This document shows, one piece after another, positions 34,102 to 40,234 of a DNA stretch of 64,000 nt. The DNA is from a bacterium (GTDB lineage: Bacteria > UBA8248). Made by a program: the position numbers and the translations under genes. The stretch spans positions 640,001 through 704,000 of the forward strand of contig CBDBZU010000004.1 in NCBI GenBank assembly GCA_965213625.1, given 5' to 3'. The notes beneath the pieces were generated by a model, which searched no databases, was not told where the DNA came from, and saw only the letters and a program-made list of their open reading frames with translations. Position 1 is the first letter of the stretch. Each line of letters opens with the position of its first letter.

Positions 34102-34193
34102 TGGCGGAGAGGGAGGGATTCGAACCCCCGGTGCAGTTGCCTGCACAACAGATTTCGAGTCTGCCGCCTTAAACCGGACTCGGCCACCTCTCC
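34102..34193 (-). tRNA. tRNA-Ser (CGA)
   Basis: GGAGAGGTGGCCGAG...GCAGA CTCGAAA TCTGT, long variable arm, GGTTCGAATCC T-loop, encoded CCA. Confidence 0.97.
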
Positions 34194-37254: not shown

Positions 37255-37647
37255 TTGCCGTTTTACAGAATATCCGAGATGGAAACGAAGCACATCGACA
37301 TGGGCAAGGCCCAGACGCAGAGCGTCGCCGGAGAACTCATGAAGGCCGGCATGATCACCTATCCCGCAGACGGCGGCCCGCCGCCTCATTACCACCCGAA
37401 CGAGGAGCAGTTTCTCCTGGTGATGGCGGGCGAGGCGAACGTGATCCTGGGAGAGGAGACCCGCGTCGTCGTCCCTGGCGATCTGGTGCACATCCGCCGC
37501 AACGAGCGTCACGGTCTTCGCATCACCGAGGGGCCTTTTTCTTTCTTCACCGTGAAGAGCCCCGCAGGCGACGGCGACCTCTACCAGGACTACAACAAGG
37601 CCGAAGACGCCGATAAGGCGCGAGAGAAACTGGAATCCACTTTATAG
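37255..37647 (+). CDS. Cupin domain protein, copy 1
   Basis: TTG start after GGAGG; PPHYHPNEEQ and GDLVHI.RN..HG motifs. Confidence 0.85.
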   Translation: MPFYRISEMETKHIDMGKAQTQSVAGELMKAGMITYPADGGPPPHYHPNEEQFLLVMAGEANVILGEETRVVVPGDLVHIRRNERHGLRITEGPFSFFTVKSPAGDGDLYQDYNKAEDADKAREKLESTL

Positions 37648-37676
37648 GTTAACTTCTAAGACCAAGGAGAGATTGA

Positions 37677-38063
37677 ATGCCGTTTTATAGAATGGAAGAC
37701 CTTCCCCAGGGGTCCTCAAAAGTAGGCCCCGCCACCAGCCACGCGACCGCGGGCGAGTTGATGAAGGTGGGCTGGGTGATTTATCCCCAGGGCGACGGCC
37801 CGCCGCCTCACTTTCATCCCAACGAGGAACAGTACATCCTGATGCTCGAAGGGAAGATGAACATGATCTGCGGTGAGGAGGTGCGCGAAATCGGCGCAGG
37901 CGATCTGGTCCACATTCCGCGAAACACGCGCCACGGCATCCACATCACCGAAGGTCCGGCGAAATTCTTCGCGGTGAAAAGCCCGGCGGGCGACGGCACG
38001 CTGGATCAGGACTACAACAAGGCGTCCGATGCGGACGAGGTATACGAGCGTCTCAAGAACTAA
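37677..38063 (+). CDS. Cupin domain protein, copy 2 (tandem paralog)
   Basis: PPHFHPNEEQ, GDLVHIPRNTRHG, VKSPAGDG.L.QDYNKA shared with copy 1. Confidence 0.88.
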   Translation: MPFYRMEDLPQGSSKVGPATSHATAGELMKVGWVIYPQGDGPPPHFHPNEEQYILMLEGKMNMICGEEVREIGAGDLVHIPRNTRHGIHITEGPAKFFAVKSPAGDGTLDQDYNKASDADEVYERLKN

Positions 38064-38113: not shown

Positions 38114-38638
38114 CTACTGTTGCGCTTGCGCCGCCATCCGCTTTTTTCTGAATTGCACGGCCTGGATGACGTCCTGCCAGACGAGACGCCCCAGGGGTCC
38201 CGAGCTGTAGAGCGAGATGTTTACCTTGCCGTCTGGTGAGAGCAAAAAGTTGGTGGCGTGAAGAAACGGCCTCGGCTTCTCGCCCGCCTCGGGTGAATAG
38301 AATGCACCCGTCACCTCGGATACATAAGCGGGGTCCACGCTGTGCCCGACCGGAAAGTTCACCTTGCTCGCCTCGATAGACTGCAGTGCTTCCTCTTCAG
38401 GGTCGGTGGACGCCGCCACGACCTTGATGCCCTCGGCTTCCAATCTTTCTCCCGCCCGGGAGAATCCCGCCATCTGGGCGAGTCAGTAGGGTCACCAATG
38501 GCTGCGGTAGAACAGGACGACGCCCCATGAGCCCAGCAGGTCATCGGGCAGGGAGATTTTTCCGCCGCCCACCTTGGCGATTTCGATACTCGGGAAATCA
38601 TCCCCGGTGTCGAGGAAGAACCGGTTCACTTTCGGCAT
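38114..38638 (-). CDS. AhpC/TSA (peroxiredoxin-like) selenoprotein with UxxU motif
   Basis: Continuous 174-aa frame reading ...GVVLFYRSHW-TGA-P-Y-TGA-LAQMAGF...VVAASTD; TGAs at 38492-38494 (codon 49) and 38483-38485 (codon 52) occupy both Cys positions of the FYRxxWCPYC motif; SECIS-like hairpins follow. Confidence 0.85.
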
Positions 38639-38741
38639 GATGCGCTCCAATCTGGTTCACGAATATGAATGCGACCATATCAAACGCCTGCGATGTTACA
38701 TCTCCTGCGCGGCCATGAAAACCGGCCTCCGGTTTTCGCGC

Positions 38742-38780
38742 AAAAAAACACCCCCTCGAAGTAAAGACCCGAGGGGGGTG
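38742..38780 (-). terminator. Terminator after upstream Prx-like gene
   Basis: Minus strand CACCCCCCTCG-loop-CGAGGGGGTG followed by a T-run. Confidence 0.65.
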
Positions 38781-38797: not shown

Positions 38798-39295
38798 CTA
38801 GTTTTGTGCCATCATCTTCTTTTGGAACTGAACCAATCCCACTACATCCTGCCACACGAGCCGACCGATGGGGCCCGTGCTGTAGACGGCCACGGCGACC
38901 GTTCCATCGGGCTTTAAGACATAGCCCGTGCTGTGTATGATCTGGCGTTTTTCCTCATAGAAACAACCGGTGAGTTCGGATATCTGCTTGTTGTCCAGGC
39001 CATAGCCAACGGGGAAATTGATTCCGCATTCCTCAATCGTTCCCTTGGCGTTCTCCTCCGTGTCCACGGAAGCTGCAACAACCTTGACGCCCTCTTCTTT
39101 GAGCTTCGCCGCTCTGTCAAAGGCCGTAAGCTGCTGCTTGCAATACGGTCACCAGTGTCCGCGGTAGAGCAGAACCACTCCCCAATCGCCCGAGAGATCG
39201 CCGGGAAGAGAGATTTTGCCTCCCCCCACCTGGCCTACCTCGAGGCTCGGGAAGGGATCGCCCGAGTCGACCATCTTGTCCGTCATACGTGGCAT
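38798..39295 (-). CDS. AhpC/TSA (peroxiredoxin-like) selenoprotein with UxxC motif
   Basis: CAGGAGG RBS; continuous 165-aa frame ...GVVLLYRGHW-TGA-PYC-KQQL...; TGA at 39149-39151 (codon 49); hairpin CCGT..AAGC-AGCA-GCTT-ACGG immediately downstream; paralogous over full length to 38114-38638. Confidence 0.88.
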
Positions 39296-39871: not shown

Positions 39872-40234
39872 ATGCGCGCCCAAAAATACAGTTGGGATGA
39901 GATGCCCGAGGAGGCCGTGACCGACACATTTTCGAGAAAGATGGTGGTGGGCGAAAAGGAGATGCTTTGCTGGCTCAAGCTCAAACCCGGCTGCGTGGTT
40001 CCCATGCACAGCCACGAGAACGAGCAGATTTCCCACGTCATCAAAGGTAGGCTCAAGTTTTTTGTCGACGATGAGACCGTGGAACTCGGACCTGGGGAAT
40101 CGCTTCTCATACCCCCGCACGTCCCCCACTCGGTAGAAGTCGTAGGCGACGAAACGGCAATTGACTACGACATCTTCAGTCCCATCCGCGAAGACTGGCT
40201 CGACGGGAGTGATAATTACTTAAGGGACGAATAA
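39872..40234 (+). CDS. Cupin domain protein
   Basis: PMHSHENEQ, IPPHVPH, DIFSPIREDW motifs. Confidence 0.9.
   Translation: MRAQKYSWDEMPEEAVTDTFSRKMVVGEKEMLCWLKLKPGCVVPMHSHENEQISHVIKGRLKFFVDDETVELGPGESLLIPPHVPHSVEVVGDETAIDYDIFSPIREDWLDGSDNYLRDE

Follow-up and report, generated by a model that had tools for sequence, protein, structure and literature searches.

A probable bacterial selenoprotein gene with a UxxU motif in a peroxiredoxin fold, whose two UGA codons may share one downstream hairpin

We analysed a stretch of 64,000 nucleotides (hereafter the window) from a bacterium of the UBA8248 lineage (assembly GCA_965213625.1, contig CBDBZU010000004.1, positions 640,001 to 704,000, forward strand) and found on its minus strand a gene, copy A, that is very likely genuine but mis-annotated, with both of its in-frame UGA codons predicted to be read through as selenocysteine (Sec). 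With good confidence, the locus would encode a CxxC-type oxidoreductase of peroxiredoxin (Prx) fold in which both redox residues are Sec and a single hairpin (hairpin 2) serves both UGAs. That hairpin 2 alone is the Sec insertion sequence (SECIS) of the two codons is, on comparative grounds, probable. An earlier description made from the letters of this DNA (the sequence-only reading) had claimed one frame with UGA at codons 49 and 52 in a FYRxxWCPYC-type motif, and this can be read directly on the minus strand at 38114-38638: between the ATG at 38638 and the stop at 38114-38116 there is no break other than the two in-frame TGA codons, UGA1 and UGA2. When TGA is translated as Sec, the protein runs ...VVLFYRSHW-U-P-Y-U-LAQMAGFSRAGE..., the motif stretch being FYRSHW-U-P-Y-U-LAQ; the base after the UGA is C in both cases, and the start MPK lies 48 codons ahead of the first U, as it does in orthologs. 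Under translation table 11 the gene splits into open reading frames (ORFs) of 52 and 119 amino acids (aa). As the sequence-only reading had expected of gene callers, C-terminal fragments of 100-122 aa are all that public gene calls hold of copy A.

Sequence-level counts were made on 57 loci (L024 and L026-L081) from related Nitrospinota-type genomes, deduplicated to 36 distinct copy A orthologs and 33 distinct orthologs of its tandem paralog, copy B; locus L082 (Pantoea, 29% identity) was excluded from every count, and genomes G008, G015, G017 and G025, which enter here only as L080 and L081, were included in the counts by genome. UGA1 is TGA in 36/36 copy A orthologs and is never lost, and the position of UGA2 is TGA in 19, TGC in 16 and TGT in 1, which gives 19 WUPYU and 17 WUPYC proteins. 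The same TGA codons were seen again in independent assemblies. At the genome level, matches at E <=1e-25 occur in 47 of the 51 species genomes of the phylum; the best match carries two TGA in 20 of the 51, from 5 of 15 genera, and beyond the window's own family these genomes have one-TGA forms only. One copy A ortholog, L080 (G008:C1:1512442-1512837) of a congeneric genome, lies in two pieces (residues 1-98 and 141-178, 128 aa), which indicates an internal deletion, and it may be a decaying copy.

Full-length homologs with Cys in place of Sec (P0030, P0032 and P0033) read HWCPYC, and both UGAs of copy A align with the two Cys of their WCP[YFH]C motif; columns C49 and C52 are nearly invariant in the alignment of homologs. 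The motif WCP[YFH]C occurs in 93 of the 150 best-ranked library representatives; 55 more are motif-less fragments and 2 are different. Additionally, over codons 53-170, downstream of both UGAs, the ratio of nonsynonymous to synonymous change (dN/dS) relative to the window gene lies at 0.02-0.16 for 28 of the 31 pairs compared; the remaining three are saturated, and the copy A genes of L080 and L081 were excluded. Both Cys homologs with C-x-x-C at the UGA positions and strong purifying selection downstream, which the sequence-only reading had named among its checks, were recovered.

The 4.15-Mb genome possesses the machinery for Sec insertion. We found selA (564 bits), selB (388 bits) and selD (333 bits), all above curated cut-offs, and one copy of tRNA-Sec (selC) with anticodon UCA (75.9 bits, also above the curated cut-off), so all four genes that the sequence-only reading proposed to look for are present. 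ARAGORN detected 46 tRNAs, including one tRNA-SeC and one ordinary 75-nt tRNA-Cys(GCA). UGA is at the same time an ordinary stop codon that terminates 29 of the 64 ORFs of at least 250 aa in the window; a genome-wide reassignment of UGA was rejected on this count and on the residue of the aligned homologs, which is Cys. The selD gene (G000:C4, 1518852-1519814; TGA at about 1528-1530 of L011) is a selenoprotein gene too, with one in-frame TGA. The hairpin after this TGA, GGUCC-GGA-GGACC, taken to be its SECIS, is GC-rich with a GG-first loop, similar to hairpin 2 of copy A.

Two hairpins follow the UGAs of copy A (Table 1). Folds of the 60 nt past UGA1 contain both as they had been claimed, and the distances given for the loop of hairpin 2, which begins 34 nt past UGA1 and 25 nt past UGA2, hold as well. 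The bSECISearch rule places the loop 16-37 nt from the UGA. Apical-loop guanosines that are conserved are a mark of bacterial SECIS elements, according to two papers (PMC1976440; PMC13582414), and hairpin 2 is a stem-loop just 3' of the UGAs with G in the first two positions of its GGGC loop. It has 18 nt (positions 31-48 from UGA1), covers codons 59-64 (F-S-R-A-G-E) and is found once in the window. The argument for its role is conservation. In 34 core-clade orthologs (L053 and L054, which are without hairpin 2, are excluded from the codon analysis) the codons TTC TCC CGG GCG GGA GAA show zero synonymous change at 6/6 codons, while outside the hairpin 88 of 89 conserved degenerate codons vary, with a mean codon entropy of 1.07 bits. 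The change observed is GTG for GCG in two rows, both UxxC orthologs, which turns the loop from GGGC into GGGU. Since the residues at this site differ in the paralog and in the Cys homologs, the protein does not demand the sequence. Furthermore, UxxU and UxxC orthologs both have the two hairpins, and the stem of hairpin 2 is unchanged in all 15 core-clade UxxC orthologs, which argues that hairpin 2 is needed for UGA1 too.

Hairpin 1 begins 1 nt past UGA2 and about 10 nt past UGA1 (positions 14-28 from UGA1). Because of this position it would be unwound once UGA2 occupies the A site and therefore could not serve that codon; probably it is a spacer or an accessory helix. In the alignment 93.6% of its cells are paired, and 2 of its 5 pairs carry compensatory changes (double changes CG to GC in 3 rows at 15/27, and 9 at 18/24). 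Covariation for both helices together reaches 0.126 against 0.059 in shuffles, with 0 of 500 shuffles as high.

The mechanism that we propose would start with SelB and Sec-tRNA(Sec) bound to the G-first loop of hairpin 2 (38447-38464). Sec would be delivered first at UGA1 and, three codons on, at UGA2, where the shorter distance to the loop would still leave hairpin 2 outside the ribosome. The Sec pair may then alternate between the selenol and diselenide states, as has been reported for SelL.

Several observations weigh against this proposal. Sec insertion at either codon and the diselenide are predictions from sequence. The folding energy of the hairpin region does not stand out (z = -0.53; 52 of 200 shuffles fold equally well or better), nor is it significant against shuffles for copy A or copy B in general (z from -0.53 to -1.68), and thermodynamic stability was dropped as evidence. 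Hairpin 2, being invariant, offers no covariation, and its sole apparent double change comes from L053 and L054, which are divergent and hairpin-less. Hairpin 1 does covary, and its place shortly after UGA1 leaves room for a role in the decoding of that codon. In E. coli the spacing between UGA and SECIS is reported to be tight, and one hairpin acting at two spacings 9 nt apart would need a more tolerant SelB. A search of the window with Rfam at gathering thresholds matched no SECIS family; this result was given no weight, and we know of no general bacterial SECIS model in Rfam. Across the UGA region, X10 and X20 have RNA-library contigs; these belong to relatives (16-29 differences), may be DNA carry-over and were not taken to prove expression, and gaps in the cover by X5, X10 and X20 carry no meaning.

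The sequence-only reading, whose checkable points all held, had left the choice between one shared SECIS and two staggered ones. The shared element fits better, and the staggered arrangement, in which hairpin 1 would act for UGA1 and hairpin 2 for UGA2 only, is improbable. It draws on the position of hairpin 1 and on its compensatory changes, together with the covariation above shuffles given before. In the fdhF gene of E. coli the spacing from UGA to SECIS is 11 nt, near that of hairpin 1 from UGA1. The 15 core-clade UxxC orthologs speak against it: they have no UGA2 and keep the stem of hairpin 2 despite a synonymous divergence (dS) of 0.41-0.82 from the window gene. Moreover, two pairs of hairpin 1 fail to form in 3-5 of 28 distinct rows, and the loop of hairpin 1, CAGAU or CAGCU, lacks G at positions one and two, unlike the bacterial SECIS elements described in PMC1976440 and PMC13582414.

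It is still less likely that only UGA1 encodes Sec and that UGA2 is read as Cys, by a SECIS-dependent tRNA of the tRNA(ReC) or selC* type or by near-cognate read-through. Close relatives do encode Cys at codon 52, so Cys is functional there, and tRNA(ReC)-like genes are reported to be commoner in genomes with UxxU hydrogenases (PMC13582414). Neither ARAGORN nor the tRNA-Sec model found a second selC-like tRNA or tRNA(ReC) among the 46 tRNAs, an absence that is unproven in a genome 96.6% complete, and the sub-threshold matches of the model were in 10 of 10 cases ordinary Leu, Ser, Tyr, Asp, Arg or Gly tRNAs. TGA is also kept at codon 52 in 19 distinct orthologs from 5 genera. Finally, the second TGA could result from an error in sequencing or assembly, or from a recent nonsense mutation that broke the gene in this genome; the closest ortholog, L026, is 96% identical and has TGC, one base away from TGA. 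This is extremely unlikely. TGA stands at this place in 19/36 distinct orthologs, in independent assemblies and on all deep branches of the clade, dN/dS downstream is 0.05 relative to the UxxU orthologs L028, L031 and L033, and a contig from an independent study (run X5, record 21) is identical to 38421-38621, both TGAs included. The ortholog TGAs, the Cys homologs, the downstream selection and the independent contig together rule out sequence error, a pseudogene and termination at the UGAs, as far as sequence can reach.

Copy A has a tandem paralog, copy B, on its own strand some 150 bp upstream. Over 170 aa that include both flanks of the UGAs the two share 55% identity, in agreement with the alignment to a neighbouring paralog that had been noted before. 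Copy B is a selenoprotein gene too, a point absent from the sequence-only reading: all 33 distinct sequences read WUPYC, with TGA at the first position. Its SECIS-like structure is extended, with a 9-bp outer helix (RNA positions 15-23 with 69-77 from the UGA) that starts 11 nt past the UGA, a 6-bp inner helix within it (28-33 with 58-63) and a variable apical hairpin. Each pair of the outer helix is formed in 29-33 of the 33 sequences, and a CG to UA double change occurs in 3. Given this extended structure against the compact hairpin of copy A, the tandem paralogs have diverged in SECIS architecture. Public calls for relatives of copy B are likewise C-terminal fragments without the active site.

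Table 1. Positions of the two paralogs, their UGA codons and the associated RNA and DNA elements in the window
Feature	Position	Strand	Basis and remarks
Copy A, UxxU selenoprotein coding sequence (predicted)	38114..38638	minus	174 codons plus stop; read-through translation
UGA1 (codon 49), predicted to encode Sec at the attacking, N-terminal residue of the CxxC-type motif	38492..38494	minus	
UGA2 (codon 52), predicted to encode Sec at the resolving, C-terminal residue, which corresponds to the peroxidatic Cys of Prx	38483..38485	minus	
Ribosome-binding site GGAG of copy A	38645..38648	minus	6 nt 5' of the ATG; read from sequence
Hairpin 1, 5-bp stem, CAGAU loop	38467..38481	minus	CUCGCC-CAGAU-GGCGGG at ~38466-38482; single-sequence and alignment folds
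Hairpin 2, proposed SECIS, 7-bp perfect stem	38447..38464	minus	UUCUCCC-GGGC-GGGAGAA; minimum free energy and centroid folds
Terminator-like hairpin with T-rich tail, between copies B and A	38751..38777	minus	10 pairs, 7 G-C; consensus match only
Copy B, tandem paralog, UxxC selenoprotein (WUPYC; predicted)	38798..39295	minus	165 codons; translation; TGA 39151-39149
SECIS-like extended stem-loop of copy B	39075..39137	minus	alignment folds

In the maximum-likelihood tree copies A and B are separated with full support. Within copy A the deep branches are all UxxU, and UxxC forms are nested mostly in the window's own genus, plus L045; indeed, the nearest relatives of the window gene (92-96% identical) are a mixture of UxxU and UxxC. 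On this tree the UxxC label needs 7 changes (treekit); well-supported branches force 5 of them. In the sister pair L053/L054 (G029, G033), copy A is UxxC, lacks hairpin 2 and has a copy-B-like stem in its place. In the rows of the tree TGA was read as Sec throughout, which extended genes with a TGA stop (copy A of L042, L044, L049 and L081; copy B of L044, L053 and L054), and the copy A row of L080 was dropped. In L053 and L054 copy A lies in the frame of copy B, whose stop is TGA, and the TGA-as-Sec fusions of 414 and 409 residues were treated as artefacts; these two fused rows aligned as copy A, and the '3 changes' obtained for label B are an artefact of them.

Copy A probably arose from a UxxC gene by tandem duplication. 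The simplest reading would have the compact hairpin and the second Sec gained together, once, in one lineage, after which the second Sec would have gone back to Cys several times by single-base changes from TGA to TGC or TGT, reversals being possible. A bolder proposal, which we regard as rather unlikely, is that the invariant SECIS is so placed that it can serve one or two UGAs, the resolving position being a one-base Sec/Cys switch flipped repeatedly among congeners and hairpin 1 a spacer melted by the ribosome. Each flip might shift the enzyme from a selenylsulfide to a diselenide couple or back, perhaps with selenium supply or oxidative niche, and hairpin 1, folded at UGA1 and unfolded at UGA2, might hold hairpin 2 at a workable distance for both. 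If true, a single SECIS switch with a melted spacer would be a new rule for the decoding of closely spaced Sec codons in bacteria.

Both paralogs carry the Pfam domain AhpC-TSA (PF00578), with 66.7 bits for copy A and 69.7 bits for copy B against a cut-off of 26. The AlphaFold2 model of copy A built with an alignment has a mean predicted local distance difference test score (pLDDT) of 95.5 and a predicted TM score (pTM) of 0.91; it was used in place of the single-sequence model, which was unusable (pLDDT 36.6). In the model a helix begins at residue 50, which would put U49 and U52 at a helix N-terminus, as in CxxC folds. The best fold matches are Bcp4 (3hjp, TM 0.77), Prx6-type chains and ResA (TM 0.61-0.65), at about 20% identity, and the sequence matches are the AhpC-type 7kuu (E 2.2e-7) and ResA (E 6e-7). 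The NCBIfam equivalog models for peroxiredoxins score 18-32 bits against cut-offs of 140-456, and the ResA and SelL-related models also fall far below theirs.

When copy A is aligned to 7kuu, the Pro of the Prx catalytic site corresponds to Arg45, the Thr of TxxC to Sec49, the peroxidatic Cys to Sec52 and the Arg to Ala. Because the catalytic-site Pro, Thr and Arg of Prx are not kept, copy A more likely takes part in disulfide/selenylsulfide exchange than acts as a canonical peroxidase. Its N-terminus shows no apparent signal peptide or anchor in the membrane, and it carries the family-specific motif YSSGxxGR. In this sense, the sequence and the model point to a cytoplasmic protein of Prx fold with a thioredoxin-type redox motif, and copy A is predicted to be a thiol:disulfide oxidoreductase.

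Compared with canonical peroxiredoxins (AhpC, Prx6, BCP/PrxQ), which give its best sequence and fold matches, copy A has its second Sec at the place of the peroxidatic Cys; unlike them, it has neither the PxxxTxxC motif nor the conserved Arg, and Prx that are selenoproteins have TxxU. With ResA/TlpA it shares a W-C-x-x-C-type motif at a helix N-terminus, but it differs in the lack of a visible signal peptide or anchor, in extra C-terminal elements of Prx type and in YSSGxxGR. SelL is reportedly a UxxU selenoprotein of aquatic eukaryotes that forms a diselenide, and copy A resembles it in the thioredoxin/Prx-like fold and the UxxU redox motif. The SECIS of eukaryotes, SelL included, lies in the 3' untranslated region, unlike that proposed for copy A, which is bacterial and in-frame. 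Membership in the SelL-related model (NF040769, SelL_rel_redox) was rejected, with 27.8 bits against a cut-off of 120 and a match over residues 19-99 only. In the Global Ocean Sampling (GOS) study, SelL is called 'a Prx-like protein' and a UxxU motif is described in another family, 'Prx-like 2' (PMC2398784).

The nearest known group is the 'Prx-like thiol:disulfide oxidoreductase' selenoprotein family (PF00578), defined by just such a redox motif of thioredoxin type in a Prx fold, for which two reviews already tabulate the motifs UxxC and UxxU (PMC9312934, PMC13188914); the later one gives its Sec count as '1~2' (PMC13188914). Copy A is like this family in its AhpC-TSA domain, in Sec at a CxxC-type motif and in having UxxC and UxxU forms, and the function is predicted only in both. 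We placed copy A there by domain and motif from the description in these reviews, whose reference protein is WP_010940744.1. Copy A thus belongs to a kind already catalogued and its novelty is modest; the novelty was overstated in the sequence-only reading. Beyond that listing, this lineage adds a tandem UxxC/UxxU pair, the proposed compact and invariant SECIS, and a second position at which Sec and Cys have been exchanged repeatedly inside a single genus. Our literature search yielded no paper on this gene pair, its SECIS or the Sec/Cys toggling, and the supplements of PMC13326102, PMC13188914 and PMC2398784 may list the gene.

How two UGAs three codons apart are decoded in bacteria was asked again in 2026 for UxxU hydrogenases, in a paper that raises the possibility of one downstream SECIS serving both UGAs and reports the higher frequency of tRNA(ReC)-like genes mentioned above (PMC13582414). 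The hydrogenases share with copy A the spacing of the bacterial UGAs and a Sec/Cys mosaic on the tree; they are unrelated to it, their Sec being a metal ligand, and tRNA(ReC) co-occurs there (PMC13582414), while none was found here. The locus of copy A constitutes a compact natural test set for this question: an 18-nt invariant hairpin, a second hairpin that covaries, and UxxU and UxxC alleles one base apart within one genus. Its added value lies in clean comparative support for one SECIS serving two UGAs, and in a natural Sec/Cys series at the resolving position. Furthermore, with copy A bacteria offer a candidate Prx-fold protein with a diselenide redox couple. According to the BSepDB paper, metagenome-assembled genomes labelled Nitrospinota are among the ten most selenoprotein-rich bacteria (PMC13326102), and our locus L075, with a WUPYU ortholog, comes from one of those ten. 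As public sets hold an active-site-less C-terminal fragment of it, redox inventories of this selenoprotein-rich marine lineage miss copy A.

Several otherwise unrelated contigs match only about 35-40 nt round YR(S/G)HW-UGA-PY (38484-38520 and 39131-39172), and some of these motif-only contigs reach a depth of 112.8 in X10 and 65.2 in X20. These matches suggest that other members of the family sharing the motif and its UGA have a good share of metatranscriptome libraries. The neighbours of the copy A/B pair give no functional lead: three small Cupin_2 genes on the plus strand flank it (37264-38063 and 39872-40234), cyclase, alpha/beta-hydrolase and creatininase-family genes lie upstream of these, and an SPFH gene is also nearby. 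Elsewhere in the window, the minus strand carries a group II intron domain (RF02005, 54514-54729, 73.8 bits), a 5S rRNA (63795-63909) and a tRNA-Ser(CGA) (34102-34193).

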